64,000 nucleotides of DNA, taken from the IMG/VR virus record IMGVR_UViG_3300029522_000074; one strand, written 5' to 3'. Below, one piece after another: positions 15,063 through 55,328 of the stretch. The first letter of the stretch is position 1. Every line of letters starts with the position of its first letter. The notes below the pieces were generated by a model. It had not been told where the DNA came from. It saw nothing but the letters and a program-made list of their open reading frames with translations, and made no database searches. Made by a program: the position numbers and the translations under genes. The stretch comes from a virus. Taxonomy: Duplodnaviria > Heunggongvirae > Uroviricota > Caudoviricetes.

Positions 15063-15099
15063 TCACTTCTGCTATTCAGCAGAAAATAAATCAAAGGAT

Positions 15100-15264: not shown

Positions 15265-15273
15265 GTTCTGTCT

Positions 15274-15585: not shown

Positions 15586-15608
15586 TTTTATGGAGGATTT
15601 AAAGGATT

Positions 15609-15818: not shown

Positions 15819-15825
15819 AGAGTAG

Positions 15826-17554: not shown

Positions 17555-17566
17555 TTCTGAAGGGGC

Positions 17567-18226: not shown

Positions 18227-18339
18227 GTAGTAATATGTTGCGCATTAAGGCTTTATTTAGGCGTTAATTAGCAATATGTGGCTAGTTAATAATTAGAATC
18301 TTTGGAGTGTGTTGTGCATACTGCACACTCTTTTTACAT

Positions 18340-18419
18340 GGGTAGGTCGTATAGCGGCAATTACACCTGACTGTAAATCAGGCGCTTCGGCTTCGTTGGT
18401 TCGAGTCCAACCCTGCCCA
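18340..18419 (+). tRNA. tRNA-Tyr(GTA)
   Basis: GGGTAGG/CCTGCCC acceptor, CCTGA-CTGTAAA-TCAGG, long variable arm, GGTTCGAGTCC. Confidence 0.93.
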
Positions 18420-18587
18420 CTAATTTGATGTTTCTGTGAATGGAAACAGAGAATAAATATATGTACTCATGATTGGTGTCATAGCTGATTGTGGGATTTA
18501 TGATGAATATATAAAAATGCGACAAAGAAGCGGTTAGTTAATGATACTACTGCTTCTTTTTTGTTGTTTGAAAGGAAGTGAGATTTA

Positions 18588-19622
18588 ATGGGTAGAAAAA
18601 TACAACACAATAATATTGTTACTGATGAGTTATTAACTCAGTGCAACAAAGAGAATATAGAGTTAGGAAATGACTTTTTGGATTATCTTCGTTCAGTTGA
18701 TAGATCTCCAAATACAATCAATGCATATAGACGTGACCTTTACATTTTCTGGGTGTATTTACTTCAGCATTGTAACAACAAATTCTTTATTGATTTATCT
18801 AAGAGGGATATTGCTCGTTATCAGAGTTTTTGTCTTTCTGAATATAAATGGTCGCCAGCTAGAATGCGTAGAATAAAATCTACTCTCTCTTCTCTTTCAA
18901 ATTATGTCGAAGCTATATTAGATGATGAGTATGAGAACTTTAAACCGATTATACGCAAAATTGAAAATCCTGCAAATGAGAAAGTATTTACTAAAACTGT
19001 GTTATCTGATGAACAAGTACAGGGAATGCTTGATTATTGGGTTGAAAAAGGTAAGTATGACAAGGCTTGTATTTTAGCATTAGCTGCATTTAGTGGCAGA
19101 CGTAAGAGTGAATTACCACGCTTCAAAGTATCTTATTTCGATGACGAAAATATCATATACGGTTCTTTATATAAGACACCTGAAAAGATCCAAACAAAAG
19201 GAAGAGGATCTCGTGGAAAAATGTTAGTAGCATATACACTTGCAAAACCGTTTAAACCATATTTTGATTTGTGGATGAATTATAGAAAAGAACACGGAAT
19301 TGAATCAGAATGGTTATTTCCAAAGAAAGTAAATGGAGAATATATAGATGAACCTATGGATTCAAGCACTCTTGACAGTTGGGCTGATACGTTTAGTAAA
19401 CATTTAGGAGAAGACTTCTATTTCCATAGTCTTCGTCATTTCTTTACAACTTCTTGTTCTCGAAGTGGACTTCCTGATGATGTAATTCAAATGCTAGTCG
19501 GTTGGAATTCGCTTGATATGGTTGCGGTGTACAAGGATATTGATGCAGATGAGCAATTTGCAAAATATTTTGCTGATGGAGAAATTAAAAAGGTTGAACA
19601 AAAATCACTTTCTGATCTTTAG
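18588..19622 (+). CDS. Tyrosine recombinase/integrase
   Basis: SGRRKSE (R), HSLRH, GW and catalytic Y in MVAVYKD. Confidence 0.9.
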   Translation: MGRKIQHNNIVTDELLTQCNKENIELGNDFLDYLRSVDRSPNTINAYRRDLYIFWVYLLQHCNNKFFIDLSKRDIARYQSFCLSEYKWSPARMRRIKSTLSSLSNYVEAILDDEYENFKPIIRKIENPANEKVFTKTVLSDEQVQGMLDYWVEKGKYDKACILALAAFSGRRKSELPRFKVSYFDDENIIYGSLYKTPEKIQTKGRGSRGKMLVAYTLAKPFKPYFDLWMNYRKEHGIESEWLFPKKVNGEYIDEPMDSSTLDSWADTFSKHLGEDFYFHSLRHFFTTSCSRSGLPDDVIQMLVGWNSLDMVAVYKDIDADEQFAKYFADGEIKKVEQKSLSDL

Positions 19623-19634
19623 TTTTATCTAAAA

Positions 19635-20279
19635 TCACTTCTTCTTATTCCAACACTTCTTCACATAACAACCAAATTTAATAATTTTAACCCCTAGAAT
19701 ACCTATCCCTTTAATTATAATCTTAATAAGAAAAATAACTAAGAATACCCCTCCGCATACAAATGCATATTTGTAGACCACATCTTCATTATTAAATAAA
19801 GCTGCAATTATAAATGACATATAAATAATTAGCCCATCTACTCCACAGAAAAATATGAACTTATCGTCTTTAGATAAATACATAACACTCTGTATAAAAT
19901 TAGGTTCAAGATATCCTAATCTTCTGCGTAGATATGAGTTTCTATCATATATGTTATTTTTGAAATTATTGTAGTTATATTTATTATGATTGTCTTTTAA
20001 TATTATATATGTTTTATGAGTGGATCTATCAATATATTTGATATTATAATCATTCATATAAGTTGATATATGATTTATAACATCATCTATAGTATTTTCA
20101 TTATATTCCTTATTATTGTTTAAAATTTTATACAGGGGATAATAAATTCGATTATATGCAATTTTCATATTATCTAATGGAACATTCTTATTATAATTAT
20201 ATTTGGTTACAATAAAGGTAAATATACCTGTTATAAGTGCAGGAAGAATTATTTTTAATATTTCTATAAATGATTCCAT
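19635..20279 (-). CDS. AT-rich membrane protein (moron), about 3 TM segments
   Basis: Hydrophobic N-terminal and two C-terminal segments; opposite strand; GAGG RBS. Confidence 0.7.
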   Translation of the reverse strand: MESFIEILKIILPALITGIFTFIVTKYNYNKNVPLDNMKIAYNRIYYPLYKILNNNKEYNENTIDDVINHISTYMNDYNIKYIDRSTHKTYIILKDNHNKYNYNNFKNNIYDRNSYLRRRLGYLEPNFIQSVMYLSKDDKFIFFCGVDGLIIYMSFIIAALFNNEDVVYKYAFVCGGVFLVIFLIKIIIKGIGILGVKIIKFGCYVKKCWNKKK

Positions 20280-20338
20280 AATTTTACCTCATTATATTTT
20301 TACTTGCATCAGCTAATTATATGTGTTATAATACAAAC

Positions 20339-20455
20339 CAAAAGAAACAAGCAATTATCCGTTAGACGGTTGAGCCAATATAATCAACAATGGCTAAATA
20401 AATATAATATTCAACACATTAATGACCGTGCTTTGGCGAGTGGCGGTCATTTTTG
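20339..20455 (+). ncRNA. Putative antisense antitoxin RNA
   Basis: Promoter TTGCAT-17-TATAAT (20304-20332); terminator AATGACCG...CGGTCATTTTT overlapping the 3' end of the toxin ORF. Confidence 0.6.
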
Positions 20456-20547
20456 TGTTTATCAAGAACTCTAACTAGGTATGTAGAGCAAATTCCGCTT
20501 ACTATACCAGTTACTAATGTAAAAATTAGTAAACCACAAAATGTCAC
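20419..20547 (-). CDS. 42-aa type I toxin-like peptide (Fst/Ldr-like architecture)
   Basis: GTG start with AAGAAGGA RBS; MTFCGLLIFTLVTGIVSGICSTYLVRVLDKHKNDRHSPKHGH. Confidence 0.7.
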   Translation of the reverse strand: MTFCGLLIFTLVTGIVSGICSTYLVRVLDKHKNDRHSPKHGH

Positions 20548-20691
20548 GTATTATCCTTCTTTGTAAGTATTTCCTACATGATGTCACGAGGATATTTATA
20601 TAACAGAACATCACTGCTCTGACGTGACTCAACCACCTAACCATCTCTATCTAGCCAAACAAAGATGTTTGAATAACCGCTTGTCCTCTAC

Positions 20692-20720
20692 ATTATAAAT
20701 CATATGACATTTTCTGTCAA
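20692..20720 (-). promoter_or_regulatory. Consensus sigma-A promoter for the toxin mRNA
   Basis: TTGACA-17 nt-TATAAT on the minus strand. Confidence 0.8.
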
Positions 20721-21122
20721 AATATTCCAAAAATAAGAGAATAATATAACATATAAATCAATCAGAGAATATAAAAATATCTTAAAAAGAAATTCTTTTG
20801 TATGGGTTGAGTCTAACTTGATCCTAGTTTTCTTAATTCTATCGACATCTAGGATAATCGGTTAATTTCAACCTTAGAAATAAGAAGATGTTCGTGCCTC
20901 TCTGCGTTAATGAGAATCCTAATTGACAGATAATAGTCATTAAATCTTATCAATTAATCTTTACTCCGAAGACCGAAAATATATAGAGAATAATCAGTAA
21001 GCATGGATACCTTGTGTGTCTTAGGGTACTTAGTTTGTACCTGAATAATAACTGGATATGTACAGTCCAATATCAGCTAGTTAGTGCTTTATGCTGATCC
21101 AGTGGGTGAGATGCCCACATTA

Positions 21123-21195
21123 GGTCTGTTCGTCTAGCGATCTAGGACATCGCCCTTTCACGGCGGCAACAGGAGTCCGAATCTCCTACAGATCA
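21123..21195 (+). tRNA. tRNA-Glu(TTC), atypical T- and D-loops
   Basis: GGTCTGT/ACAGATC acceptor, TCGCC-CTTTCAC-GGCGG; T-loop TCCGAAT. Confidence 0.8.
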
Positions 21196-21284
21196 TTACG
21201 TAGCTGATACTTAAATGGACAGCGAGGCTATACATTTTTTGTATAGCAACAGAGAGTCACTTCATGAGGTGGCTCTTTTATTAT

Positions 21285-21367
21285 GTAGTATTGGCAGAGT
21301 TGGTATTGCACTGGTCTTGAAAACCAGCATTCCGAAAGATATGGGAGTTCGATTCTCTCACACAGCG
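21285..21367 (+). tRNA. tRNA-Ser(TGA), degenerate acceptor stem (possible pseudo-tRNA)
   Basis: CTGGT-CTTGAAA-ACCAG, long variable arm, GGGAG-TTCGATT-CTCTC; two mismatches in the acceptor. Confidence 0.6.
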
Positions 21368-41043: not shown

Positions 41044-41520
41044 ATGGGTTCATTTAGACTAGATCAGAATTTTATAAATAAGATAGAAAAACAATGTCAA
41101 GAAAAAGCAAAAAATTTAGCACATGAGGCTTCTGAAAAATTAACAAATCATTATATTACATTGCTTGATTGGTATTATGCCGATTATCAACCAAAACTGA
41201 ATAAATACGATGAACCATATTATATTCGTACCTTCAATTTATATAAATCAGCTCACAAATATTATAAAAATGGAACTGATAGATTTTATGGTGGTGTTCG
41301 TATTGATGGTTCTACTATGAAAGATTATTCAGGAATTAGAAATGCTTCAATATCTGGACAGGATTTATTGAGTACATATATCTATAATCCATCTGGTACA
41401 TGGCATGGTGGTGATTGGTATGGTGGTTATGGAGTTACGGCGAGTTTTAACATTTATAACGAAATGCAAAAATATAAAAATAAATTAATAAAAGACATGC
41501 AGAATAGATGCAAAATCTAA
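41044..41520 (+). CDS. Hypothetical tail-module protein
   Basis: GGAGGTG RBS; directly before the tape-measure gene. Confidence 0.6.
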   Translation: MGSFRLDQNFINKIEKQCQEKAKNLAHEASEKLTNHYITLLDWYYADYQPKLNKYDEPYYIRTFNLYKSAHKYYKNGTDRFYGGVRIDGSTMKDYSGIRNASISGQDLLSTYIYNPSGTWHGGDWYGGYGVTASFNIYNEMQKYKNKLIKDMQNRCKI

Positions 41521-41534
41521 TAAGGAGGAATAAA

Positions 41535-44500
41535 ATGGCAAAAGATGGTATAGTAAGTATTGCTATTGATTATAAAAACGAGCTTAATCAAATGATTCGT
41601 GATTATGAATCTGCTTTAACTAAGATGGCTTCAAATGATAAGTTATCAAAAGGAATGAAAGCACAATTTGATAATACAATTGCTGAGTTAAAGCGTTTTA
41701 AGGCAGATATGGAAAAATCTTTTTCTGATTTAAGTATCGGAAAAGTGGATAAAAACAGTTTTAAAGCTTTTAAACAAACTGTTAATAAGAATTTTGAATC
41801 TGTTCGTGCAGAAATTGATAGATTAGATTTAGCTGTTTCAACTATAAATTCACAGATAAAAATACTTGGAAATGGTGTTGATATAAGTAAGATAAGTAGT
41901 CAATTTAAAGATTTTCAAGATTATGTACAGAATACAAATAATGCTATTGATACAATGATTAAAAAACTTGATGGTCAAGGCATTTCATTAATATCATTTG
42001 ATGATAGCGCAATAAATCAAGCAAAGTCTCAGATAAAAGAAATTAATAAATTACTTAAAAGTACAGATGAGTTCAGCGATGCAAAAGGCTCAAAATATGA
42101 ATTATTTGATACAGAACAAGCTCAAGCAGAACTAGATGTTCTTGCCAAAGATTTAAAAAATACTCTTGAATTAATTGAAAAATCTGAATCGGAACTTTCA
42201 AATTTTGATAAAAATAGCATCGGTTTTGAAAAAACTATTAACCAAATCAATATATTGAAATTAAAAGCTGCCGATTTACACGATTCTATTCAACAGTTAA
42301 TAGATATTCCCGATAAAACAGGAGAATATACATTTGGTGATTCAATACTTATTTCTGATGACAATGTTGATAAAAAAGTATCTGAATATGAAAAAATTGT
42401 AAAAGGAACTTTAGATGAAATTCGTGAATCTGCCATCAAAACTCGTGAAGAGTTAGATAAAATCGTAACACCTACCTCTTCCAAAACAGCTTCTGCAAAA
42501 ATATCAGATAAACTCAACCCAAATTCAGCAGAATTAGTAACTGGTGTAACAATTGAAACCACTTCATCTGAATTATGGAAAAAGTTATCTCCTATTATTG
42601 AAGATTTACAAAATATCCTTAATAAAAATCCCGTTGTTGCTCCTGTAAAACTTGTAGTAGCACCAAATGCAGTATCTTCTGAAAAAAATGGTGAAGTTGG
42701 CACTATTAGCAAATCTTATTCGAAGAAGTATCAAAGAGAATTAGCAAAAACTGGTGAAGATGCAGTTATTGATTTAGAGGGTGTTTATAAGAAAACATTT
42801 ACTTCTATAATGGATGAAGCTGTTTCTTATTCTAAGGAAACAATTTCTAAAATTCAAAATATCTTTGAATCTTCTCCTATTAAATTACATTTTGATTTTA
42901 ATGAAGAAGAATTTAAGAAAATATCAGATACACTTCTCTCTTCTGATTCTGATAAAAAGATTGACATTACAGATCAGATTGCAGAATCAAAAAAGGAGGT
43001 TAATGAACTTGCTGAAAAACTTGCCGAAGTTAATGAATTATTAAATTCAGCAGATTCAAAGGATTTTAGTTTTAAAGGGTTTGATAAATTCGCAGAAGAA
43101 ATTTCAAAAAGCCTTGGTCAATTAGTCGAATTACAGTCAATGTTAAAGACATTACAGAATATAGAATCTACTCTCGCTAGAGCATCAGGTGTAAGTAGTG
43201 TCACTGATATTGAAACACAGTGGCAGAATGTATCTAAGTTAATTGAGAATTCTATTAAGTTAGATGGTACTTTTAGAAAAAATGCAAATGTAGATAAACT
43301 TGCTTCAGAATATAACAAGTATCTCAATATGGGTGGTACTAATGAGTTATCATTTATTGGAAAGGTTGGGAAACTTGAAAATAGCAAGAATATTATGGAA
43401 GCTATTCTTTCAAAAGCTAAAGAGCTAAATTCTCAAAAAGTAGATACATCTTCTGTAGATAAAGCAGATGATGAATTGAAATCAGTATCTTCTACTCTCG
43501 ATGACGTTATCTCTCGTCTTGACCATATGATAAATTTGACAAGAGATATTGGTAATACATTTTATAAAATGTTCAAAGACACTTCTGTTAGTGATATAGA
43601 TAAACAGTGGTCTTCTATCGAATCTAAGTTCAAATCTATTGCTGATGAATCTGGCAAAATAAATCTCTCTAAACAGAAAAAAGATATTCAAGAATTAGTT
43701 GAAATGTACCAAAAGTATGCAAATACTGGTGGTATGAAAACTCCTTTTGATTTAACAGATAATGCAGAAACCATTAAAAAAATAAATAAAGTCTATGAAC
43801 AGATGAATTCAAAAAAAAATAGAACTTCTGTTACGAATGAGTCAAAGAATTTCATTAAAGTAGAGGATTCTGTTAATAGTCTCACTTCTGCTATTAATAC
43901 AAAGACTGAAGCTATTAAAACAGAAGCTAATACAATGGAATTAGCTGCAAGAGCTGAAGTCAAATCTATTCAGAAGATTATTGATGCATTAAATCCATTA
44001 ATTGAGAGAATAGAAAGTATTCCTGAATTAAAGATACCAAAAGAAGATACTATTCTTCCACATAAGGAATCGAATATTTCATCGGCTTCCAATCCAAGGA
44101 AAGACGCATTTCCCTCTAATGAAGAAGTAAAACAGAAAGAAAAGTTAGCTGAAGCAACTAGAAAACTTCGTCAAGAAGAAAAACAGTCAAGTCAAGATTC
44201 TGTTAATTCTGCGTTAAAAGATCAAGTTTCTGCATGGAAACAGATTCAATCTATTCGTGAAAAAATAGCAAAGGTTGATAATCCAGATGTTATTAACCAA
44301 CTTCAAGAAACTAAAAGATATTACCAGCAACAGTATTTAGATGCAACTAAAATTCTAAAATCTAATCAAGATTTATACGATGCACAAGGACAGTTAAATA
44401 GGCTTAAACAAATTGAGTTAGAAACAACTGCAAAAATTAGTCAATATCAAAGTAAAAATACTGAAAGTGTTTCAAAGTATAATCAATCTCTTAAAGATAA

Positions 44501-46094
44501 TGCAACTCAAAAATTATCTAATTATAATAACACTTCTAAATATACTCCTGAATTTATTGAACGAGTTAATTCAAAAATCTCTGAAATTGGACAACTTGAT
44601 ATTACGAAACCAGAAGATGTTGCTAGATTAAAAACAATTGACAGTGAAGTTCAGAAAATTGTCGATGATTCAAAGTTATTAGAGAATAAACTTGTTAAAC
44701 AAGATTCTAAGATTGCTGACATTATATCACAGATGAAGATTTTTAGGTCACAAAATACTAATATGTCTTCATCACAAAAACAAGCATTAGATGATGTAAT
44801 TAATTATGCCGAAAAACTTGCAAATACTGGTAAGGTAACTGCCCAACAAATAGAAAAGATAAAAATATCATTTTCTGGATTAAAAGCTGTAGTTGCATCA
44901 AGTGGTAATATGGGTAAAAACTTCTTTAGTCAAATCGGTAATCGTCTTACTGATATGAACAGCAAATTTGTTGCTCAGTTTTTGAGTTGGCAAGATTGGA
45001 TAAGATATATTCAGCAAGGCGTAAATACTATTCGTGAACTTGATACAGCGATGACTGAAGTTAAAAAAGTATCGGATGCAACAGAAACACAATATTCATC
45101 ATTTAGAGACACTATTTCTTCTACTGCAAAAGAGATTGCAACAACAAATAAAGAATTGCTTAATTCTAGTGCAGATTTCTTAAGATTAGGATATAGTCTT
45201 GATCAAGCAAGCGATCTTGCTAAAAACGCCACATTATTTGTTAATGTCGGTGATGGTGTTGATATTACAGAAGCTACCGAAGACATGATTACAGCTATGA
45301 AAGCTTTTGATATCCAAGCTGAAGATAGCATTAAAATTGTTGATGATTATAACCAGATTGGCAACCAGTTTGCGCTCTCTGCTTCTGATATTGGTGAAGC
45401 AATGAAACGTTCTGCATCTGCTCTTGAAACAGGTAATAATAGTTTTGAACAAAGTATCGGTCTTATTACTGCTATGAATGAAATTGTTCAAAATAGTGAA
45501 AACACAGGTAACTCTCTTAAGGTTTTAAGCCTGCGTTTAAGAGGTGCAAAGGCAGAATTAGAGGATATGCAGGAAGACACAGATGGTCTTTGTGATTCAA
45601 CCTCTAAGCTTCGTGAACAAATTAAATCTTTGACTGGTGTTGATATTATGTTAGATGACAATACATTTAAATCAACAACAGACATTATTAAAGAATTAGG
45701 TGCTGTTTGGGATAAATTATCCGATTCTTCACAAGCTGCAACTCTTGAACTTATAGCTGGAAAATCAAGGGCGAATAATGTAGCGGCGTTACTTAAAAAC
45801 TATCAAAGAATTGATGAAGTTATGGAAAGCCTTGGTGATGCCGAGGGTTCAGCAATGCGTGAAAATGAAGCTATAGTTGATTCAATCGATGGACGAATTA
45901 AGAAACTATCTGCTTCTATGGAAGATTTTTGGCAAAAAGCAATAAATACAGATTTTGTAAAAAATATTGTATCATCACTTGATACCATATTAAATCTATT
46001 AACAAAAATCATTGATCAGTTCGGTTTACTTCCAACTATTATTGGTGTTGGTGGTGCTGGTACAGGTATCTTTAAGTTTATTAAGAATTTTGAT
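41535..46094 (+). CDS. Tail tape measure protein, exon 1 (unspliced ORF runs on to stop at 46154)
   Basis: Long coiled coil with TP901-type TMP core (ELDTAMTEVKKVSD...GNSLKVLSLRLRG...AGKSRANNVAALL); AAGGAGG RBS before ATG 41535. Confidence 0.85.
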
Positions 46095-46660
46095 TGGGTT
46101 TTAAAACCTTACACAAAAAACTCTCTCCAACAGTTTTTAGTTGGTCAATCATAGATAAGAGAATAACATAATGGCGTTGTAATCAAGTCTATGGATACAT
46201 GGGATTCTTAATAAAAAACTCTGCAAACACTTTAGCGGAGTATAAACTTTACATGGAGGAATAAATGCTTGAATGCTTGGTAGCTTAACAAACTACCCAC
46301 GGATCACATAACAAACCATAATCCATATAGTTATATTGGATGAGGTTGCGAAAGTAGAAAAAATTGTATATGTGGATATATGAGAATATCAAGGAGACTT
46401 GATAGGTGTCTAAGTATCATTAACAACGGGCAACGAGCAGGACGGTACTCTACATTTTATAATGTTGACCATATATAGAAATGAAAGGTCATATATAGAG
46501 AATAACTATATAAGAGAGCAATCCCCAACGACATACCCATCCTCTAAGTGAGTCATCGCCTTAAGTATGACATTCGCTTATAATGCATAGTGTACATTGC
46601 GATTTCGGAATTCAGTAATGTACTTGAGTGTGTGTTTCACTCAACTAGGAAATTCCAAAA
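46095..46660 (+). ncRNA. Group I ribozyme-like catalytic core
   Basis: P4 TGCTTG(46274-79)/CGAGCA(46434-39), P6 GGA/TCC, J6/7-P7 CAAC-GACATAC(46526-36), P8 GTACATTGC/GTAATGTAC, P7' GTGTGTT(46630-36). Confidence 0.7.
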
Positions 46661-46686
46661 ATAATTTATAAACAGAGAATAATAAA

Positions 46687-46712
46687 ATAGGACTGTCGTG
46701 AGACAGCCCTAT
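46687..46712 (-). terminator. Terminator hairpin between the cargo genes and the ribozyme core
   Basis: ATAGGACTGTC-GTGA-GACAGCCCTAT; T-rich tail on the minus strand. Confidence 0.55.
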
Positions 46713-46751
46713 CATTGAAGTAAAGGAGAATAAATATATAAATGAAGAACA

Positions 46752-46937
46752 TTAATGATGAAGATTGATATTGATATCCTTAGAAGTCATTTCTGCTAAA
46801 CTTCCAGTTTTGGAATCACTGTAGTCTTTGCAGATTTTAGCAATGTAACATTTGCCAACGATTGAAGCTATGTGGCATATTACATAACATATTCCAAGAA
46901 TTATTGAACCGATTATCTCGGCATATAATATATTCAA
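46752..46937 (-). CDS. 61-aa single-TM peptide (type I toxin-like), intron cargo
   Basis: GGGAGGTG RBS, TTG start, hydrophobic N-half, long structured leader. Confidence 0.6.
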   Translation of the reverse strand: MNILYAEIIGSIILGICYVICHIASIVGKCYIAKICKDYSDSKTGSLAEMTSKDININLHH

Positions 46938-47155
46938 TATGTATTTTCACCTCCCTTCTTAGTAAGAATATAAATAAGTAGGGAATATTCTTTTAGCCCA
47001 GAACGGGCAGATATTTATTCCGACTGCCATAAAAATAGACATTGGGACAACCTTCGGTTATAGAGTGTTATGGCACACATCTATGTTGTTTCTCCAATGT
47101 CTATATTTTACCATTGTATTTAATTCAATACAATCCCAGAACAATAGTTCTAATT

Positions 47156-47326
47156 TTATAATTGTGAGTTAATATACTCTTCTCTTTCGGATTTCGTCAT
47201 TGAGAAGAATTTTTCAAATTCTATATCAAGATTTTTGCATTCAATGTTGCATGTTCTGCATATACATTTTATATAATGTGTGTATGTGATTCTATGACAA
47301 TTAGGACAATAATGGATTTTAAACAT
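47156..47326 (-). CDS. 56-aa zinc-ribbon protein, intron cargo (below ORF-track cutoff)
   Basis: AAAGGAG RBS; MFKIHYCPNCHRITYTHYIKCICRTCNIECKNLDIEFEKFFSMTKSEREEYINSQL. Confidence 0.65.
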   Translation of the reverse strand: MFKIHYCPNCHRITYTHYIKCICRTCNIECKNLDIEFEKFFSMTKSEREEYINSQL

Positions 47327-47380
47327 AATCTAACTCCTTTGTGTGGTATCTAAATCAGTCGTATTATTAAATGTTAATCA

Positions 47381-47662
47381 TTACATATTATCCTTTTCAG
47401 TATCGAGCGTTATTTTATCATCGCTTAATGAATATTCTCTATGATAGAATTTAGTAATATCCATATCTAATGCCTCAATTACCCTACAAGCAGTTTGGAA
47501 AGTGGCTGATTCTATTTTACGCTCTCCACTTTCAAATTTTTGATATTGTTGAGGTAGAATTTTTGCTTTCTCGGCAACTTCTTGCTGAGTTAATCTAAGA
47601 TTGATTCTTCTTTCTTTGAGTATGTTAGATGTTGTTAATAATTTAAAAAGTTCTGTTTTCAT
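47381..47662 (-). CDS. XRE-family HTH regulator, intron cargo
   Basis: LTQQEVAEKAKILPQQYQKFESGER; AGGAGG RBS. Confidence 0.85.
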   Translation of the reverse strand: MKTELFKLLTTSNILKERRINLRLTQQEVAEKAKILPQQYQKFESGERKIESATFQTACRVIEALDMDITKFYHREYSLSDDKITLDTEKDNM

Positions 47663-47676
47663 ATTTTCCTCCTATC

Positions 47677-47721
47677 ACATTCATTTGAGTGTATTTTACA
47701 TTCAGGTGAATGTCTTGTCAA
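47677..47721 (-). promoter_or_regulatory. Promoter with two tandem palindromic operators
   Basis: ACATTCA-tt-TGAGTGT (47677-92) and ACATTCA-gg-TGAATGT (47698-713) flanking the -10; TTGACA-17-TAAAAT on the minus strand. Confidence 0.75.
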
Positions 47722-47809
47722 GTACGAAAATACTAAACAAATGTTCTTGTAGATATATGCCAAATATTGGTATATAATGAACAAAATAGTATATTTAATA
47801 GGAGACTAT

Positions 47810-48754
47810 ATGAACAGGGAACATTTTTATCAAAAAACATGGTTTAAAAATTTTATATTAATAATTATACCATCTTTAATATCTGTTTTTGGTGTAATTA
47901 TTTCTTTTGTTCCAGAAAGTGTAAGACCTATATTAATTTTTGCAACAATCATATCTTTGGCAATATTAATTGGATTTGTAATTTATTTTGGAAATCAGGA
48001 TGACGATTTACATAAAAAATTAGAAAATCAACAATTACAAAACCTGACACTTACAAATATTATTGCTCATATGGAAAATTTATATAAAACTAATACATTT
48101 GAGATTTCAAGTTTATCTAATACCTTTGAGGTATGGGCTTCAGCAATTAATTCTTTTGCTAATAATATATTTAAAACTGGAACTATTTCTAATAAAGCAT
48201 GGGATAAAATAAAATATATAGATGATATTTGTGTTTGTTGTAGAAAGTTAATAGAACAATATTGTAACAATACTGATGATTCTAAAGTGTTTGTAAGTTT
48301 TGTTTCTTACACTTTGGATAAAAATGGTGAAGAATGGGTACATATGATATGTCATTCAAGTCCTATTACAATAAGACCTACAGCATATAAAAAGAAAATG
48401 AAATTATCTACATGTAAATATCATTTTGCGGATTTAATTAAAGATAGTTATTCTGGTATTGAAATTGCATTAGATAACAATGAAGTTAGAGCGTTATTTA
48501 AAAAAGTTTCCATAGAAACTGATTTATCCCAATATACTCAATACATTGCTATACCTTTATATTGTAAAAGCGGAAAATTATTGGGAATCTTTCAAATAGT
48601 TACAAAGAATGGTTATATAATTGAAGATTCAAAAGTAAAAATGGAAAAATTCATTACAGATAACATAATACCTTTATCTAATTTAATTATTCTTACTGAT
48701 AAAATATATAAAGGTCTTTACATTACTCCAACAAATATTAATGAGGAGGAATAA
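47810..48754 (+). CDS. Two-TM membrane protein with C-terminal GAF-like domain, intron cargo
   Basis: Two N-terminal TM helices; YIAIPLYCKSGKLLGIFQIV GAF-like strand pattern; TATAAT and GGAG upstream. Confidence 0.6.
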   Translation: MNREHFYQKTWFKNFILIIIPSLISVFGVIISFVPESVRPILIFATIISLAILIGFVIYFGNQDDDLHKKLENQQLQNLTLTNIIAHMENLYKTNTFEISSLSNTFEVWASAINSFANNIFKTGTISNKAWDKIKYIDDICVCCRKLIEQYCNNTDDSKVFVSFVSYTLDKNGEEWVHMICHSSPITIRPTAYKKKMKLSTCKYHFADLIKDSYSGIEIALDNNEVRALFKKVSIETDLSQYTQYIAIPLYCKSGKLLGIFQIVTKNGYIIEDSKVKMEKFITDNIIPLSNLIILTDKIYKGLYITPTNINEEE

Positions 48755-48757
48755 TTT

Positions 48758-49087
48758 ATGGCTAAATATAAAAAAAAAGAAATTCAGATTATCGACATGA
48801 GCAGCCGTTTAAGGGTTAAAATTGTTGAAAGTACATACGAAGAAGAGCGTAGACACGAGGAAGAGTTTGAAGAAATGCAACTTAAAGTTGAGAAAAGAAT
48901 GATTCAATATGAAAAAGATATTCGTAATCTACTCATTGAGGCTAAAACAGAAAGTTGTATAAAGGTTACACCTAAAGATACAGAAAAATATATAAAAAAA
49001 TATAATGATGAATTTTCAGGCAAAAATTCTAATAACATTCAAAGAAGAATACAAATGATTCAAAAATATTTAGAAGAGCAGGACTAA
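48758..49087 (+). CDS. Charged hypothetical protein, operonic with the TM-GAF gene
   Basis: GAGGAGG RBS in the upstream gene end. Confidence 0.7.
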   Translation: MAKYKKKEIQIIDMSSRLRVKIVESTYEEERRHEEEFEEMQLKVEKRMIQYEKDIRNLLIEAKTESCIKVTPKDTEKYIKKYNDEFSGKNSNNIQRRIQMIQKYLEEQD

Positions 49088-49101
49088 TCTCCTGCTCTTT
49101 T
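49075..49101 (+). terminator. Plus-strand intrinsic terminator inside the intron
   Basis: AGAGCAGGA-ctaatc-TCCTGCTCT-TTT. Confidence 0.65.
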
Positions 49102-49128
49102 ATATTACTCTTCTTTTCTATTATCTCA

Positions 49129-49248
49129 TCAGTCTTTATCTTCAGATCCGCTACATTCGTCACTGTGTTCACAGAATTCACAATAACATTCATCTGTATA
49201 ATCACCTGTTTGCCAACATAGTTCTGTTGGAGGCATATCATTGTTCAT
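49129..49248 (-). CDS. 39-aa acidic Cys-rich peptide, intron cargo
   Basis: GAGGAG RBS; MNNDMPPTELCWQTGDYTDECYCEFCEHSDECSGSEDKD. Confidence 0.55.
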   Translation of the reverse strand: MNNDMPPTELCWQTGDYTDECYCEFCEHSDECSGSEDKD

Positions 49249-49330
49249 AAACTCACCACTCCTCTGCTTAAAAATATCTTAATTATACACTTGTTATTTT
49301 ATCAAATTATTATATGTGAGGTGAATCAAT

Positions 49331-49459
49331 ATGAAATTATCTATAAAGATTAAAATAAATGAAATACGAGAACTGAAACCAATTGTTGAGTATATAAAGA
49401 ACTTGGAGAATAATTCTCCCGAACTCAATACAGAGATAGAAATTGAGCTGGGAGAATAA
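49331..49459 (+). CDS. 42-aa hypothetical peptide, intron cargo
   Basis: GAGGTG RBS; MKLSIKIKINEIRELKPIVEYIKNLENNSPELNTEIEIELGE. Confidence 0.55.
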   Translation: MKLSIKIKINEIRELKPIVEYIKNLENNSPELNTEIEIELGE

Positions 49460-49462
49460 TTA

Positions 49463-49690
49463 TTAGTTTTCTTTTATAACTTCAATAATTGAAATTTCTG
49501 ACTTAGAGATGGTAAATGCATTAGTGTCAGAATATAAATGTAAATCATATCCAACTGAATAATGATGATTAAATATTTCTTCATTTTCAAGATTGTATTC
49601 TAATACGCCTTTATGACCATAATAGACCTTATTGATATGGTTGTATTCTTGCACTTTACCATCTTTGTTTTTAATTTTAAATGTATACAT
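49463..49690 (-). CDS. Hypothetical protein, intron cargo
   Basis: GAGGAGGA RBS. Confidence 0.65.
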   Translation of the reverse strand: MYTFKIKNKDGKVQEYNHINKVYYGHKGVLEYNLENEEIFNHHYSVGYDLHLYSDTNAFTISKSEISIIEVIKEN

Positions 49691-49768
49691 AGTATCCTCC
49701 TCTGTAATTTGATATTACTATCATACTACATTAAGGAATATTTTACCATTCGGAACATTAGTTCTTAC

Positions 49769-50179
49769 TTAAAAATCACTCTTACAATTATTGCAGTGCC
49801 ATTGTTTCTTAACCTTTTGTGAGAATATACCAAACATCGCTACCGATGTTACCTTTGATACTCCTGATATTTTCTTACAATTTGTACTATTACAATATGG
49901 ACAATGAACTTTATTCAACCAATCTTGTGCTTGTGCGTTAGCTTGGGCGATTTGCTGTGGGGTAAGGTCGGGAATCGCAGGATTGTTTTCTTTAGTTCCA
50001 TATTGTTTACTTAATTCACACCATAGTTGTTGAGCATCGTCATCTGAACAATTTGTTAATTCTTGAATAAACTTTATTCCTTTTAATGTTTGATTTTGAG
50101 CAATTATCACCAACATTTTTGTTGCTTCCGTGCTTTCAATTTGATTATCAAAATAATATTTTGCTTCTTCGTAATTCAT
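49769..50179 (-). CDS. C-terminal zinc-ribbon protein, intron cargo
   Basis: CPYCNS...WHCNNCKSDF; AGGGGG RBS. Confidence 0.75.
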   Translation of the reverse strand: MNYEEAKYYFDNQIESTEATKMLVIIAQNQTLKGIKFIQELTNCSDDDAQQLWCELSKQYGTKENNPAIPDLTPQQIAQANAQAQDWLNKVHCPYCNSTNCKKISGVSKVTSVAMFGIFSQKVKKQWHCNNCKSDF

Positions 50180-50228
50180 AATAACCCCCTTTTTTTGTTT
50201 TTATTATATCAGACAACACATAAATACG

Positions 50229-53200
50229 CAATTAAAGACTGTTGGAGAGTCTGTTAGCGTTATATCAAAACTTGAAGAAGCTTTAAAAGAAATAGACAAT
50301 ATTGGTACTGTTGGTATGCCTAGAATGGCACAGGTAAACAGATTGTTAAAAGAAACTTTTGCTGACTGTTCCATTGAAGCTGCAAAAATGGCGATTTCGC
50401 AAAGTGCATTAAATAAAGAGCAAATAGAATTGATTTTATCCTCAAAAGGTCTTACAGGTAATATTCTTGAAACCACTACGGCTGAACTTGCCAATGCAAC
50501 TGCTACTAATGCCGTAGCTGTTGCCGAAGGTACTGCTACTACTGCTACTGTTGGATTTGGTACGGCTATTAAAGGATTGGGAGCATCGTTAAAATCACTC
50601 GTTGCCGCTCATCCTGTATTACTTGCTATAACGGCTGCTATAGGTGCAATTTATGCTACCGTAAAAATCGTTGACGCTTGTACGACAAGTTTTGATGAAT
50701 TAAAAGATAAAATATCCAACTTAAAACAAGATGTTTCTGATTCTGAATCAACTTTAAAAGATTATAAAACTCAGCTTGATGAGATAAATCAGAAAATAAC
50801 CGAAATTAATAATCAAGATTCTTTAAGTTTTACAGACGAACAAGAATTAGAAAATCTCAAAAATCAGAAAACCGAGCTGGAAAATATGTATAATATTGAA
50901 AAAGCTCGTCATGATTTAAAACAAAAAGAATTAGAAGATACTGCTAATAAATATTTTGATAAGAAAATAACACCTTCCTTGTCTAAAGAATATAAGGATT
51001 ATTCGGTTGTAGACGAAGATGGATTTGAAAAAAAACTTACAAAACTTGATATAATGAATTTAGCCAAAGAAAGAATGCTTTTAAATCAATCTAGGTTAGA
51101 TACATTAAATGAAGAATATAATGATAAATCAAACCCTTCCAATAAAGAAACTAAAGAGTATGAGAAAAAGAAGGCACAACTTGAAAAAACTCGTGATGAT
51201 GCAAAGACAATTGCGTTAGACATTCAAGAGGAAGCAAAAGATCAAGTTGAAGGCTTAGATTCAACTTCTGATACCTACAAAAAAGTTACAGAAGCTTCGC
51301 AGGAATTATCTGATGCGTTGGCAAGACTGAATAATGACTGGGATAGTCTATCTGATAAAGGTAAACAAGAAAATTTATTTTCTAAGATATCAAAAGATAT
51401 TCAAAATAGTATATCTGATGGATTAGATGATGAATATAACAAAATATCCGATTGGGGACTTGACGAATATACAGATAAGATAAAAGATGGAAGTATTCAA
51501 TCCAAATTTGGCAATGTGGATATGGATAAACGTACTATTATTCATTGGTCTGATGAACTAAAGAAAACATATGCTGACGCATTAGCAAGTTGGGATTACG
51601 ATCCAGAAATAGGTTCTATTGATACAGTATTTGGCGGTTCAGAGCGTTTTGGAGAAGATTTAGATGGTAATGGTTGGGAAGTCGCCTTCACTCCTATTTT
51701 GCCAGATGGAACATTTTTATCTAAAGATACTGTTGAAGAATATATTAATTCTATCTTAACAGAAGCTTATGCTGATGATGGCAAAGTTACAGAAGATGAA
51801 TTGACTGCTATTGATGCTGAAGGTCGTCAGATTGGAGATACATTTGTACAAGGTATTTTCGCTGGTATTGATGATAGTCAAGACTATGACAATAATGGTA
51901 ACTGGGCAGAAGTTGTTGGTCGTCTTATGCATTTTTCTGGAAAAAATGGTGCTGTACAGATATTAAAGAATAATCAAAATTCTTCATCTGATAATATGAG
52001 TGCAATTAAAGATTATCTTTCAACCTTATCTGATGATGATTTAAACATTCTTGCTAATGTGACTTTTGATGAAGACACTACAGTCGAAAGTCTTAAAGAA
52101 GTTATTAAAGCCGCTCAAGAGGAAGCCAACAAAAGTTCAGTAGATTTATCTGTTAAAACATTTGATCCTACTTCTCTTCTTGAAGAATCAGATGATAAGA
52201 CTAAGACAGCAACATTAGCAGACCTTCAGTCAGAAGCAGATTTGCTATCTTCTATTCAGAAGGAAATGTCTGAAACAGGTCGTATCGGTGTTGATTCAAT
52301 GCAGAAAATTATCAAGCAGTATCCAGAAGCAAAAGACGCTTTAGGTCAGTATATGCTTGGTATTATTTCACAGGAAGAGTTGTTTGACCAGTTACAGGGT
52401 GTGTATGAGGATGATAAAAATGCTTATATTTATTCACTTGTTGAGAAGTCTAAGAATGATAGTACGTTCTATTCTAACCTTGTAAATACAAATAATGAGT
52501 TCTTTGCAGGCTTATCTGAAGCGTATAGTGAAGATTTCAGTAACTATAAAAATCTCGCACAAGCTAAACAGAAGATTGATGACCAACTTGTTAAATATCT
52601 TTCTGGTATGTGGGGTAAATTCTATCAGAAGACTATAGATACAGCAACAGGATTAATGTCTTTAAGTTCAAAAACTACTTCTATGGATGATGATATGGAT
52701 TTAGGCTTATATCTGTATCAGAATGGTGCAGATGAAGAGACAAATGCAATTGCTGAAATGCAGAAAATGGTTGATGATTACAATGCTTTACAGAATATAT
52801 CATTTGAGTCTGCTTTTAATGGTATTGATTTATCATGGCAAGGTTTTTCAGGTGACGATTCATCATCTTCCAACAATTCATCCTCTTCACAAACAGAACA
52901 AGATGTGGACTGGATTGAACGCTTAATCAATAAGATTTCTACAGCATATTCACGTTTAAAGAATGTTGTATCAGATACAACAACTACATGGCTCAATCGT
53001 AATAACGCATTGTCAGATTCTATGAGCACACTTGCAGATGAGATAAATGCACAGTCAGATGCTTATGAGTATTACATGAATGCTTTTAATTCTTATGGTC
53101 TTGATGCCTATTATAAGAATCAGATTGCAGATGGTTCTATAAGCATAGATGTTATTTATGATGACGACTTAAAGGACGCTATATCTGATTGTCAGGATTT

Positions 53201-55328
53201 CTATGATAAAGCACAGGACGCTAAGACCGCCGTTCAGGAACTTAATATTGAGTTAAAAGGACTTGCTAAGAGTAGGTTCGATAATGTAGCTTCTGAATTT
53301 GAAGAAAAGATTAATAAGATTGTTGCCGTTAGAGATTTATACAGTAAAGAAGATGAACTTATGAACGAAAAGGGTTGGTTCTCTTCTACCCTACTCAATT
53401 CAGCAATGATTGACCAGGAAAATAAGAATCTTCAAAAACTCGAAGCCGAAAGGGATGCTTTAGTCAATGCATTAAATTCTGCTGTAAATTCTGGAAGCAT
53501 TATGCCTGAATCAGAGGATTGGTATTCTATGCAGTCAGCAATAGATGAAGTTTCTTCAAGTATTTTAGATGCTAAGAAGGCTTTGGTCGAGTATGATAAC
53601 ACCATTCGCCAGATTAATTGGGATGCTTTTGATAGAACTCGTGATGACGTTGAAAACCTTATTACTGAAACAGACTTCCTTACAGAATTACTTAAGGATG
53701 TCGGAATAACTGATGATAATGGTAATATGACCAAAGAAGGTCAGGCTGCTCAGGCATTACTTGCACAGAAATACCAATTATACCTTAATCAAGCAAAAGC
53801 TTATAAAGATGAAATTGCTAAAATTGATGCTGATTTAGCCAATAATCCTTATGACAAAGAGTTACTTGACAGAAAACAAGACCTTATTGATAAGGAACAA
53901 GAAGCTATTAAGTCTGCTATGAGCGAAAAAGATGCCATTAAGAATTTGACTAATGATGCTTATAATGATTTTATTGATAAGCTTGGAGATGCCATTGATA
54001 AATACAAAGAGCTTATGAGTACTATGAAGGACGCTTACGATTATGAGAAATCTATTCGTGAGAAAACGGAAGCTCTTAATGCTTTAGAGAAACAATACTC
54101 TGCTCATCAAGGCGATAATTCTGAGGAAGGTAAGAAGAATATTCAGCAGCTTAAAGACCAGATTAATTCTGCTAAAGATGATTTGAAAGATACTGAATAT
54201 GAAAAGCTTATTAGCGACACTGAGAAAATTTTAGATCAATTAAAAGATAATACACAAGAATGGCTCAATCAGCGTTTGGATCAATTGGATAATCTAATTC
54301 AGGATATTATTGACCAATCTAATGATAATGCTTCTGATATTGCAGAAACTATTACTTCTACTGCTGAAAATTATGGTTATAAACTAAGTGAATCAATGGC
54401 TTCTATATGGAGTACTAATACTGGTAATATAACTAAGGTTCTTGATAATTTCAGCACAAGTTTCATTGATAGCAATTCAAAGATTAAAGATGTTTGTGAT
54501 AATATCAATTCCGCTGTACAGGGATTACTTGCAAATAGTAATGCCGAGGCACAGAGAGTTGCCGATGAGATTGCAAGACAGCAGGCTGAACAGAATGCAA
54601 GTTCTGATGGCGGTTACTCAGGCGGTAATGATTATTCTGGTGATGATTGGAGTGGAAACTGGGATACTGGTTCAGATGATAATGATTCTTCTGGAAGTGA
54701 CGGTGTTGATTGGATATATAGTAAGGATTATTTCGATAAAAATAGTTTAAATATAGACACATCAATCGTAGATCGCCTTAAACTACACGATTATGATTCA
54801 TCATTCGCAGCTCGTAGTCAGTACTACGATCAAATGGGTGGTGAAGGACAGTATTACGCTACTTATGATCAGAACGTGTGGATGCTTGATTGGATGAAAA
54901 GTCATGGTTATCGTAAAGGAACTAAATCAGCAATAAGTGGACTTCATATTTATGATGAAGATGATCCAGGTTCAGAAGTACTTGTTACTAAGTATGGTGT
55001 GCTTCGTCAGTTTGATTCAGGTGATACAGTATTCAATAAAGACCAAGTTGAAAAACTTTGGAATCTTTCTAAAGGAATCACTACACCAAACATGTATATG
55101 GATAATCTTGGTGCTAAGTTACCTGATATCTCTAATATGTCTAACAACCTGTCTAATAAGGTTGATGTCCAATTTGGAGATGTAACTTTATCATTACCTA
55201 ATGTACGAAACTATGAAGACTTTATGAAAGAAGCCCAGAAAGATCCTAAGTTCGAAAAGATGATACAAAACATGACTCTTGGACAGACTCTAGGTAGGAA
55301 TTCATTAAACAAATTAACATTTAGATAA
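50229..55328 (+). CDS. Tail tape measure protein, exon 2
   Basis: Open frame from 50229 (QLKTVGESVS...) into ORF 50316..55328; coiled coil; no SD before ATG 50316. Confidence 0.85.
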   Translation, partial: QLKTVGESVSVISKLEEALKEIDNIGTVGMPRMAQVNRLLKETFADCSIEAAKMAISQSALNKEQIELILSSKGLTGNILETTTAELANATATNAVAVAEGTATTATVGFGTAIKGLGASLKSLVAAHPVLLAITAAIGAIYATVKIVDACTTSFDELKDKISNLKQDVSDSESTLKDYKTQLDEINQKITEINNQDSLSFTDEQELENLKNQKTELENMYNIEKARHDLKQKELEDTANKYFDKKITPSLSKEYKDYSVVDEDGFEKKLTKLDIMNLAKERMLLNQSRLDTLNEEYNDKSNPSNKETKEYEKKKAQLEKTRDDAKTIALDIQEEAKDQVEGLDSTSDTYKKVTEASQELSDALARLNNDWDSLSDKGKQENLFSKISKDIQNSISDGLDDEYNKISDWGLDEYTDKIKDGSIQSKFGNVDMDKRTIIHWSDELKKTYADALASWDYDPEIGSIDTVFGGSERFGEDLDGNGWEVAFTPILPDGTFLSKDTVEEYINSILTEAYADDGKVTEDELTAIDAEGRQIGDTFVQGIFAGIDDSQDYDNNGNWAEVVGRLMHFSGKNGAVQILKNNQNSSSDNMSAIKDYLSTLSDDDLNILANVTFDEDTTVESLKEVIKAAQEEANKSSVDLSVKTFDPTSLLEESDDKTKTATLADLQSEADLLSSIQKEMSETGRIGVDSMQKIIKQYPEAKDALGQYMLGIISQEELFDQLQGVYEDDKNAYIYSLVEKSKNDSTFYSNLVNTNNEFFAGLSEAYSEDFSNYKNLAQAKQKIDDQLVKYLSGMWGKFYQKTIDTATGLMSLSSKTTSMDDDMDLGLYLYQNGADEETNAIAEMQKMVDDYNALQNISFESAFNGIDLSWQGFSGDDSSSSNNSSSSQTEQDVDWIERLINKISTAYSRLKNVVSDTTTTWLNRNNALSDSMSTLADEINAQSDAYEYYMNAFNSYGLDAYYKNQIADGSISIDVIYDDDLKDAISDCQDFYDKAQDAKTAVQELNIELKGLAKSRFDNVASEFEEKINKIVAVRDLYSKEDELMNEKGWFSSTLLNSAMIDQENKNLQKLEAERDALVNALNSAVNSGSIMPESEDWYSMQSAIDEVSSSILDAKKALVEYDNTIRQINWDAFDRTRDDVENLITETDFLTELLKDVGITDDNGNMTKEGQAAQALLAQKYQLYLNQAKAYKDEIAKIDADLANNPYDKELLDRKQDLIDKEQEAIKSAMSEKDAIKNLTNDAYNDFIDKLGDAIDKYKELMSTMKDAYDYEKSIREKTEALNALEKQYSAHQGDNSEEGKKNIQQLKDQINSAKDDLKDTEYEKLISDTEKILDQLKDNTQEWLNQRLDQLDNLIQDIIDQSNDNASDIAETITSTAENYGYKLSESMASIWSTNTGNITKVLDNFSTSFIDSNSKIKDVCDNINSAVQGLLANSNAEAQRVADEIARQQAEQNASSDGGYSGGNDYSGDDWSGNWDTGSDDNDSSGSDGVDWIYSKDYFDKNSLNIDTSIVDRLKLHDYDSSFAARSQYYDQMGGEGQYYATYDQNVWMLDWMKSHGYRKGTKSAISGLHIYDEDDPGSEVLVTKYGVLRQFDSGDTVFNKDQVEKLWNLSKGITTPNMYMDNLGAKLPDISNMSNNLSNKVDVQFGDVTLSLPNVRNYEDFMKEAQKDPKFEKMIQNMTLGQTLGRNSLNKLTFR

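Follow-up and report, generated by a model that had tools for sequence, protein, structure and literature searches.

A predicted group I intron in a phage tape-measure gene with an exchangeable nine-gene island and no homing endonuclease

We analyzed a 64,000-nt stretch of phage DNA (Caudoviricetes; hereafter, the window), which is part of the 160-kb virus record IMGVR_UViG_3300029522_000074, and found that its tape-measure gene is interrupted by an insert at positions 46095-50228. This insert is probably a group I intron, in which a fold of approximately 580 nt is followed by an exchangeable island of approximately 3.5 kb that carries nine genes and no homing endonuclease. The assignment to group I is made from sequence; it rests on the architecture of the splice sites and the internal guide, and on a well-supported fold in which the P7 helix is left unassigned. 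Two sets of related phage sequences were compared, 14 loci (the first set) and 24 inserts (the second set). An original prediction, made from this DNA without database searches, had proposed that such a comparison would show a conserved core and conserved splice sites next to variable cargo if the intron is a hotspot of gene exchange, and this is the pattern that we observed: the core and both splice sites are kept, and the cargo is mosaic.

Two long open reading frames (ORFs) on the plus strand flank the insert, at 41508-46154 and at 50316-55328, the frame of the latter being open from position 50175. Both match the tape-measure profile PHROG 4211, and the matches are collinear: profile positions 152-953 correspond to residues 687-1528 of the upstream ORF, and profile positions 961-1299 correspond to the downstream ORF. 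Uninterrupted relatives were found as well: out of 3496 candidates, 567 proteins of 2710-5000 amino acids (aa) matched the end of the upstream half with E<=1e-10. Among the matches listed, both halves gave BLASTP matches on one protein in 33 of 120 relatives, and the downstream match began no more than 100 residues after the upstream match in approximately 12 of the 120. The collinear halves, together with the uninterrupted relatives, indicate that one gene is split by approximately 4.1 kb. We predict that exon 1 covers 41508-46094 on the plus strand (1529 codons), as delimited by the PHROG 4211 match, by indels in relatives that are not multiples of three, and by the P1 pairing described below; exon 2 is predicted at 50229-55328 on the plus strand (1699 codons and a stop codon), and its first 21 nucleotides (50229-50249) form the exon strand of the P10 pairing. 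The predicted intron (plus strand, 4134 nt) has a length that is a multiple of three, and the joined exons are in frame (...FIKNFD/QLKTVGES...), so that the predicted spliced protein has 1529+1699 = 3228 residues, compared to up to 4.9 thousand residues in relatives. The frame of exon 1 continues into the intron as far as a stop codon at 46152-46154. It should be noted that there is no ribosome-binding site before the first ATG of the downstream half (50316), unlike each of the nine cargo ORFs. A split intein was considered as well, and was rejected because no intein family was found in either half (Pfam) and because the 20-residue tail past exon 1 differs by frameshift among relatives.

The ends of the predicted intron were located by comparison to relatives. 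On the 3' side, the first position with homology to relatives is 50229; a G stands before it in five different upstream contexts, and in locus L009 a stop codon abuts exon 2. A larger sample came from a scan with a 22-nt core motif, which yielded 39 viral contigs, 24 of them with both junctions in the stored DNA (the other 15, running off the contig or the 6-kb flank, were not counted). A G precedes exon 2 in all 24 of these inserts, across seven different upstream contexts; the terminal G is also present in L077, L013 and L015. We therefore place the predicted 3' splice site at 50228/50229, with the terminal intron G at 50228 on the plus strand. The sequence directly before this site is not conserved among relatives, thus P10 and the terminal G alone would mark it. 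On the 5' side, 1- and 4-nt indels at 46113-46123 were found in three lineages, and since these lengths are not multiples of three, the 5' junction is placed upstream of 46112.

Both junctions are brought together by an internal guide at 46123-46148 (plus strand), as predicted from complementarity. Its first part (46123-46143) pairs with nucleotides +1 to +21 of exon 2 (50229-50249), forming P10 with 21 of 21 positions paired (19 Watson-Crick and 2 G.U pairs); pairings anchored at base +1 of exon 2 reached 11 at most when the first 600 nt of the intron were shuffled 2000 times. Its second part (GUCAA, 46144-46148) directly adjoins the P10 strand and pairs with the last five nucleotides of exon 1 (UUGAU, 46090-46094), forming a P1 of 5 bp in which U46094 is opposite G46144. 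This P1/P10 guide is the textbook group I arrangement; the pairing can be read directly from the letters, and cleavage would be expected at the U.G pair. An additional pairing, which we call the clamp, connects exon positions 46077-46092 with intron positions 46200-46216 (16 bp, equalled in 5 of 1000 shuffles). The last 18 nt of exon 1 (46077-46094, plus strand) thus comprise the 5' strand of the clamp (46077-46089/92) and the 5' strand of P1, and these 18 nt are kept at the nucleotide level in all 26 aligned copies, despite the differing upstream exon.

The pairings are also backed by compensatory changes. For example, L077 is a more divergent copy that was found in a second scan with a motif of the 3' core and that has exon 2 in the same record. 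In this copy P1 changes from UUGAU/GUCAA to UUACU/GGUAA, i.e., by two compensatory pairs with the U.G kept; eight positions of P10 are changed compared to the window, and 21 of 21 are paired again, with three compensatory pairs (+13, +15 and +18) and wobble switches at +4, +8 and +9. For the clamp, L077 contributes two compensatory pairs and L059 one. Inserts of other types at the same site have analogous pairings: the L015 insert has a P1 of 6 bp and a P10 of 9 bp, with the junction directly after a stop codon, and the L013 insert has a P1 of 7 bp and a P10 of 7 bp.

Several additional properties of the guide were observed. The U-run of the P10 guide (46135-46139) has a length of 5, 6 or 7 across contigs (L046, L048, L052, L042 and L057); this variation may be real or may be a homopolymer assembly error, and it would bulge P10. 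Positions 46127-46144 can fold on themselves (CCAAC with GUUGG), and 46134-46154 reads, by eye, as a decayed copy of the start of exon 2 (QFLVGQS* compared to QLKTVGES). The self-fold and the decayed copy are possibly a trace of the origin of the guide, or the self-fold may be an alternative, inactive fold.

A number of other 5' splice sites and guides were tried and rejected. Sites 46073 and 46067, taken from the protein alignment, were dropped, as was 46091, for which a 15-bp helix had been taken as P1. Sites 46077 and 46189, with GCUUG(A/G) as the guide, are out of frame or behind stop codons, and the GCUUG(A/G) sequence is itself the 5' strand of P4/P5. For sites 46046 and 46052, the guide gives 6 bp with GGU repeats, including three wobbles. 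These two sites were rejected because 46053-46067 changes by indels in multiples of three and by Gly/Ala/Thr codon swaps, i.e., in a coding-like manner, and because conservation starts at 46077 in lineages with another upstream exon; the alignment of the exon-1 end ...KNFD with ...KNFG and ...KNVG of other insert types speaks against them, too. A pairing of 46089-96 with exon 2 positions +1 to +8 is broken in two of five variants.

The first 580 nt or so of the insert form a highly structured RNA, as predicted by RNAalifold on nine copies (alignment A1) and then by an explicit model on 26 copies, 25 of them distinct (alignment A4). The model has 161 pairs, with 98.1% of the cells paired. Compensatory change was found in 24 pairs, compared to 4.6±1.6 in column shuffles (none of 500 reached 24) and to 3-5 when the partners were slid. 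Helices P2, P3, P4, P5, P6, P8 and the P9-type helices can be placed in canonical group I order with the support of covariation; P7, the helix that would close the pseudoknot, is not among them. All predicted elements are on the plus strand: (i) the 5' part (46150-46241) contains P2 (46150-46193), the 3' strand of the clamp (46200-46216) and a hairpin P2.1 (46218-46241); (ii) P3 (46254-60 paired with 46540-46; 46254-46546 overall), in which one G-C pair is replaced by A-U in L077, encloses P4/P5 (46266-78 paired with 46428-39, from RNAalifold and pair counts), a P5 extension of approximately 150 nt with a GAAA tetraloop hairpin at 46347-56, and P6 with three hairpins (46440-46524); (iii) the 3' part contains the P8 hairpin (46552-56 paired with 46567-71, in four covarying stem versions), a 15-nt invariant single strand (46577-46591) and two P9-type hairpins (46592-46623 and 46624-46644). 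The segment between P6 and P3' (46525-46539) is invariant in the nine-sequence alignment A1. It should be noted that 46523-46544 was the search motif for the 26-copy alignment, and its invariance there follows from this choice; the same positions are also invariant in the nine copies that were found through the protein, and the invariance of 46577-46591 is free of the search-motif bias. As a separate observation, the loop GGAAU of the first P9-type hairpin (46607-46611) is complementary to AUUCC in the tail past the core (46652-46656), and this complementarity is kept in at least 92% of the 26 copies; a tertiary loop-tail pairing is possible.

The core evolves very slowly. In 13 loci it is 95.8-100% identical, whereas the flanking exon of these loci is 75-100% identical at the protein level and the cargo genes beside the core differ at 10-40% of synonymous sites (pS 0.1-0.4). 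The near-identity of the core, compared to the synonymous divergence of the cargo, is indicative of strong selection on the RNA.

Downstream of the core, the contents of the insert are exchanged among relatives. The break between core and cargo is at 46672-46717, depending on the relative, thus the cargo start at 46660 in the original prediction was approximately right, and its end at 50228 coincides exactly with the 3' splice site. Insert length takes 19 values, between 2226 and 5835 nt, among the 24 inserts. The most constant cargo gene, which encodes a 136-aa zinc-ribbon protein and lies beside the 3' splice site, is present in 12 of 14 loci and in 22 of 24 inserts, with distant copies in other intron types; among relatives, the C-terminal zinc ribbon is kept and the N-domain is swapped. 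A 56-aa zinc-ribbon gene (10 of 14 loci) and a gene for an XRE-type helix-turn-helix (HTH) regulator (7 of 14) form a semi-constant frame. The variable slot lies between the XRE gene and an ORF for a Cys-rich peptide, and its contents alternate: a pair of genes encoding a transmembrane GAF-like (TM-GAF) protein and its partner in the window and in L012/L033; MazF/PemK-like proteins of 231-272 aa in 12 of 24 inserts; Bro-N/ANT proteins in 4 of 24; DUF262/GmrSD_N proteins in L011, L013, L016 and L053 (PADLOC NsnA, E 1e-33 to 3e-37); a protein with a PADLOC match to PD-T4-2_A; and DUF3800, LytTR and DUF4760 proteins, with several unknowns. These families support the exchangeable-cargo reading of the original prediction. 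No known homing endonuclease or transposase family was found among 26 of the 38 cargo cluster representatives (at least 70 aa, from the 24 inserts); most of the 12 unscanned representatives are short singletons (11 have 70-79 aa, and some overlap other ORFs), and the 325-aa and 109-aa representatives from L033 were left out, their counterparts in the window having been scanned.

In the window, the island comprises nine ORFs on both strands within approximately 3.5 kb after the core, six of them antisense to the tape-measure gene, and each has a GGAGG-like Shine-Dalgarno site 5-12 nt before its start. All nine had been listed in the original prediction, and all nine are present where it placed them. 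Seven of these ORFs are well supported, and the ORFs of 39 aa and 42 aa are weakly supported. For five ORFs purifying selection is measurable, with a ratio of nonsynonymous to synonymous change (pN/pS) of 0-0.23 in comparisons to relatives with at least 90% aa identity. Nearest to the core is a 61-aa ORF with a TTG start and, by eye, a hydrophobic N-terminus (46752-46937, minus strand); apart from a distant copy in L016, L001 is the only other locus with this ORF. The 61-aa ORF is followed on the same strand by the gene for the 56-aa zinc-ribbon protein (47156-47326, CxxC...CxxC), with pN/pS of 0-0.08 at the same identity threshold, and by the gene for the 93-aa XRE HTH regulator (47381-47662), with pN/pS of 0.12-0.23. 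The latter is divergent from the variable slot; its earlier label is confirmed by Pfam HTH_3 (E 1.7e-7), and it has weak PADLOC matches to control proteins and to an RmrA-like protein.

The slot of the window begins with the gene for the 314-aa TM-GAF protein (47810-48754, plus strand; 325 aa if started at 47777). The structure predicted by AlphaFold2 (AF2; predicted local distance difference test score, pLDDT, 84.5) contains two N-terminal membrane helices, a long helix and an alpha/beta GAF-like domain. Foldseek gave 23 matches with E<=0.001, most of the listed ones GAF, with a target-normalised TM-score of up to approximately 0.6, and Atlas clusters named GAF were matched at 0.97-0.98. There is no Pfam match to GAF, thus the TM-GAF label holds at the level of the fold but not in Pfam. 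The protein has 114 homologue clusters, some of which come from bacterial contigs as long as 1 Mb. The next gene encodes a helical, charged partner of 109 aa (48758-49087, plus strand), with no nonsynonymous versus 6 synonymous changes compared to L012. The same gene pair recurs in a metagenome-assembled genome (MAG) of Clostridia (L020:2998-4291), the only locus found in a contig scan for the TM-GAF family. In that MAG the pair adjoins an IS3-like transposase gene and a gene for a 392-aa DNA methyltransferase-like protein (both named by eye), a neighbourhood that resembles a defence island.

The remaining ORFs are short, except for the last one. They encode the 39-aa Cys-rich peptide (49129-49248, minus strand; it has a ribosome-binding site and recurs in seven loci), a 42-aa peptide (49331-49459, plus strand; only a ribosome-binding site supports it), a 75-aa protein (49463-49690, minus strand; in 4 of 14 loci) and the 136-aa protein (49769-50179, minus strand), with a helical N-domain and a C-terminal zinc ribbon. 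The latter is a member of a large family without a name, with 656 clusters, one of them in a Lachnospira MAG; it is predicted to be a helical bundle with a zinc ribbon, and Foldseek gave no match at E<=0.001. Its zinc-ribbon motif is of the IS1595/IS1 type, below the cut-off, and it comes without a catalytic domain. Three small ORFs were compared to sequences of solved structures, with nothing below E 0.2. The absence of LAGLIDADG, GIY-YIG and HNH motifs, which the original prediction had reported, is upheld by Pfam, PHROGs, PADLOC and NCBIfam, in which the window cargo matches none of these, no transposase catalytic family, and no His-Cys or PD-(D/E)XK homing endonuclease. The original prediction had named a homing endonuclease or a transposase in the cargo among the findings that would contradict it; neither was seen in the window ORFs or in the scanned representatives of relatives. 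We consider putative roles in exclusion, toxicity or defence likely for the cargo genes.

The island may have transcription signals of its own, in part. It contains 3 terminator-like sites, compared to 1.2±1.4 in shuffles: a hairpin at 46686-46713 on the minus strand closes the minus-strand cargo genes and marks the start of the cargo, another one lies between convergent genes at 49071-49102, and a third one is at 49405-49419. The two best promoter-like sites (11/12 and 10/12) lie back to back between the XRE gene (site at 47721-47693) and the gene of the 314-aa protein. A terminator-tail motif was tried as a repeated border of cassettes and was rejected, since only two copies are present in the genome.

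A number of observations weigh against a spliced group I intron with self-contained cargo. We infer splicing from DNA, and the contigs of four sequencing runs were likewise DNA-like: they behaved as DNA of relatives and added only further cargo mosaicism. No P7 helix with a guanosine-binding pocket can be assigned in canonical form. The position implied for P7' in the original prediction was not confirmed; a first P7 (46530-36 paired with 46565-71) was refuted by covariation in favour of the P8 hairpin, since strand 46565-71 covaries with 46552-56 in L052, L059 and L077, giving the four versions of the hairpin, and the loop GUGUG as P7' pairs promiscuously. The best remaining candidate (46529-31 paired with 46574-76) has the C-G and G-C pairs that would be expected, and in L077 an A-U pair is inserted in matching positions; this pairing leaves a J8/7 strand of 0 nt, which is not canonical, therefore P7 is left unassigned. 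Both single strands that flank the candidate are invariant. When the whole window, 45800-50600, 46100-46720 and the loci of relatives were scanned with Rfam, neither group I nor group II introns were matched; for group I this holds at the gathering threshold and also with the cut-off relaxed to E<=10. This null result has little weight, because Rfam also misses the LAGLIDADG-bearing insert in L015. The search for P1 and P10 in L008 revealed nothing convincing, and P10 is imperfect in some relatives: among 16 distinct guide/exon-2 combinations, pairing over all 21 positions is seen in 8, one mismatch in 4 and two mismatches in 1, and 3 have a longer U-run in the guide, with one or two extra U, such that a bulge is needed for the register. 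Promoter-like sites are not in excess (38 versus 30.7±5.8 in shuffles), and the claim that the cargo has its own promoters and terminators is upheld only in part. The window cargo has no PADLOC match to a defence system, only the weak HTH matches of the XRE gene; slot genes of relatives match NsnA and PD-T4-2_A. Finally, the hairpin at 49071-49102 is terminator-like on the plus strand too, a possible obstacle to read-through into exon 2, and it lies, with six antisense genes, between the core and exon 2.

The latter two features keep trans-splicing a live, if unlikely, rival. Under this model exon 1 with the core and the 3' end with exon 2 would be separate transcripts, the 21-bp guide would capture the second RNA, and the island would never be transcribed through in sense. 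The unusual length of the exon-2 pairing is in line with this, as is a 3' splice site marked by nothing besides P10 and the terminal G. Against it, a consensus scan finds no promoter in 50180-50228, although late promoters of the phage may differ from the consensus, and the only promoter candidate found by eye would start after the terminal G. Natural trans-spliced group I introns are not known outside organelles, which we count against this model. We find it very unlikely that the intron is decayed, with an inefficient core, low-level or helper-dependent splicing, and cargo that piled up during degeneration. Such decay would fit a P7 that cannot be drawn canonically and the loss of the homing endonuclease; it is at odds with a core that evolves several-fold slower than adjacent synonymous sites, with helices kept by compensatory change, and with the presence of the core in an essential gene in at least 39 viral contigs. 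Least probable of all, in our opinion, is the absence of any splicing, with a tape measure made of two polypeptides and a conserved RNA that is a leader, a small RNA or a regulatory element of the island. The lack of both an Rfam match and an assigned P7, and the normal stop codon that ends the upstream frame, would be compatible with it. Conversely, the guide covaries with both exon ends, which would be purposeless unless they are joined; exon 2 has neither a start codon nor a ribosome-binding site where conservation begins; the G before exon 2 is kept in 24 of 24 inserts; and relatives have uninterrupted tape-measure genes.

If the insert is a group I intron, as we consider probable, splicing of its RNA would be expected to follow the two-step pathway that is usual for this class and is started by guanosine. 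The core of the pre-mRNA would fold soon after the first 600 nt are transcribed; exon 1, once cut off, would be held by P1 and the clamp (18 paired exon bases), and the 21-bp P10, next to the terminal G, would then catch exon 2 when it emerges, approximately 3.5 kb later. Being spliced out of the tape-measure mRNA, the island would be tolerated. The cargo would be expressed from its own signals, with six genes antisense and with the slot beside the XRE gene served by the back-to-back promoter-like sites, and it would be exchanged by recombination between co-infecting relatives. A more speculative extension, which we regard as unlikely, is that a selfish element has been turned into a protected dock for cassettes. 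The over-long guide (21 bp for exon 2 and 18 bp for exon 1) would join the exons over several kb of transcribed RNA, or even if these several kb are not transcribed at all; parked nucleases and toxins (DUF262/NsnA-like, MazF-like and the TM-GAF pair) would replace the lost homing endonuclease by harming co-infecting phages without the island, and the intron and its cargo would spread together.

The tape-measure gene is interrupted in other ways among relatives. Unrelated types of inserts are found at the same codon position (after ...G) in L013 (9213-15164), L015 (8718-10466), L008 and L016; all these other insert types carry cargo too, including a distant copy of the zinc-ribbon gene, and in the L015 insert elements resembling a canonical P7 and J8-7 can be seen by eye. 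A second interruption, which is absent from the window, is present at another site in L015 (6995-8000) and L016 (8580-10003), where it separates query residues 185 and 186 in the exon-1 probe. The L016 copy of this interruption contains a 384-aa ORF that weakly matches DUF5889/DUF2726. In L015 it holds a LAGLIDADG_2 ORF (E 5e-29), which suggests that introns occur in this family of tape-measure genes. Elsewhere in the window, a full-length match to the Pistol self-cleaving ribozyme was found at 1477-1545 on the minus strand (60 bits, compared to a gathering score of 34.5), and five tRNA genes form a loose cluster at 14075-21367 on the plus strand.

The predicted intron can be compared to several known systems. 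Phage group I introns, for example T4 td/nrdB/nrdD, SPO1 and Twort (PMC12908238, PMC3706429), usually hold one endonuclease gene or none (PMC12908238, PMC12880540), and introns have been documented in phage capsid and tail genes (PMC3706429). The element described here shares with them the insertion into an essential phage gene, the P1/P10 guide, the U.G at the 5' junction, the terminal G and the in-frame exons. It differs in having no endonuclease ORF and, instead, nine genes on both strands over 3.5 kb with signals of their own; in the placement of the cargo of the window after the core rather than in a loop; and in a P10 of 21 bp in the window, an extra exon clamp of 13-16 bp, and no Rfam match. 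An IStron is a group I intron fused to an IS200/605-type element. As in IStrons, a 5' group I core is followed here by foreign genes before the 3' splice site; however, the window cargo has no TnpA/TnpB-type match and is a mosaic of unrelated cassettes rather than one element, and where an IStron has a transposase at the 3' end, there is only a sub-cut-off zinc-ribbon motif and no catalytic family. The nearest precedent for a gene-filled group I intron is the giant mitochondrial intron ND5-717 of corallimorpharians, which contains many ordinary genes, including an opposite-strand ORF, has its genes in P8, and is removed from the host mRNA by back-splicing (PMC6545197). The genes of ND5-717 are core mitochondrial genes and its host is an organelle (PMC6545197), whereas the genes described here are strain-variable accessory genes of a phage. 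The island also resembles moron hotspots of phages, in that small genes with their own ribosome-binding sites and terminators are mosaic between close relatives, and toxin- or defence-type families and a small regulator lie beside the variable slot; unlike such hotspots, it interrupts the coding sequence of an essential structural gene, where it would be harmless by virtue of the predicted splicing. In the open-access full-text literature we found no phage group I intron with a multi-gene, non-endonuclease cargo.

In the usual view, the group I introns of phages are small and selfish and carry no more than one endonuclease gene. The new aspect is that a phage group I intron is likely to serve as a hotspot of accessory genes, i.e., as a safe site for swappable genes of toxin and defence types. 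If splicing occurs as predicted, this would be a natural ribozyme that tolerates 2-6 kb of unrelated, bidirectionally transcribed cargo, the long exon-guide pairings would be the means of tolerating it, and annotators would be warned that a tape-measure gene that looks "split", with morons separating its halves, may in fact be a single spliced gene. The arrangement also offers a design idea, in which payloads are carried inside essential phage genes. For the phages themselves, a family of phages of approximately 150 kb from gut and wastewater, represented by at least 39 contigs, appears to keep this intron in an essential structural gene, and to use its tail end as a place of exchange for cassettes of toxin, nuclease and regulator types.

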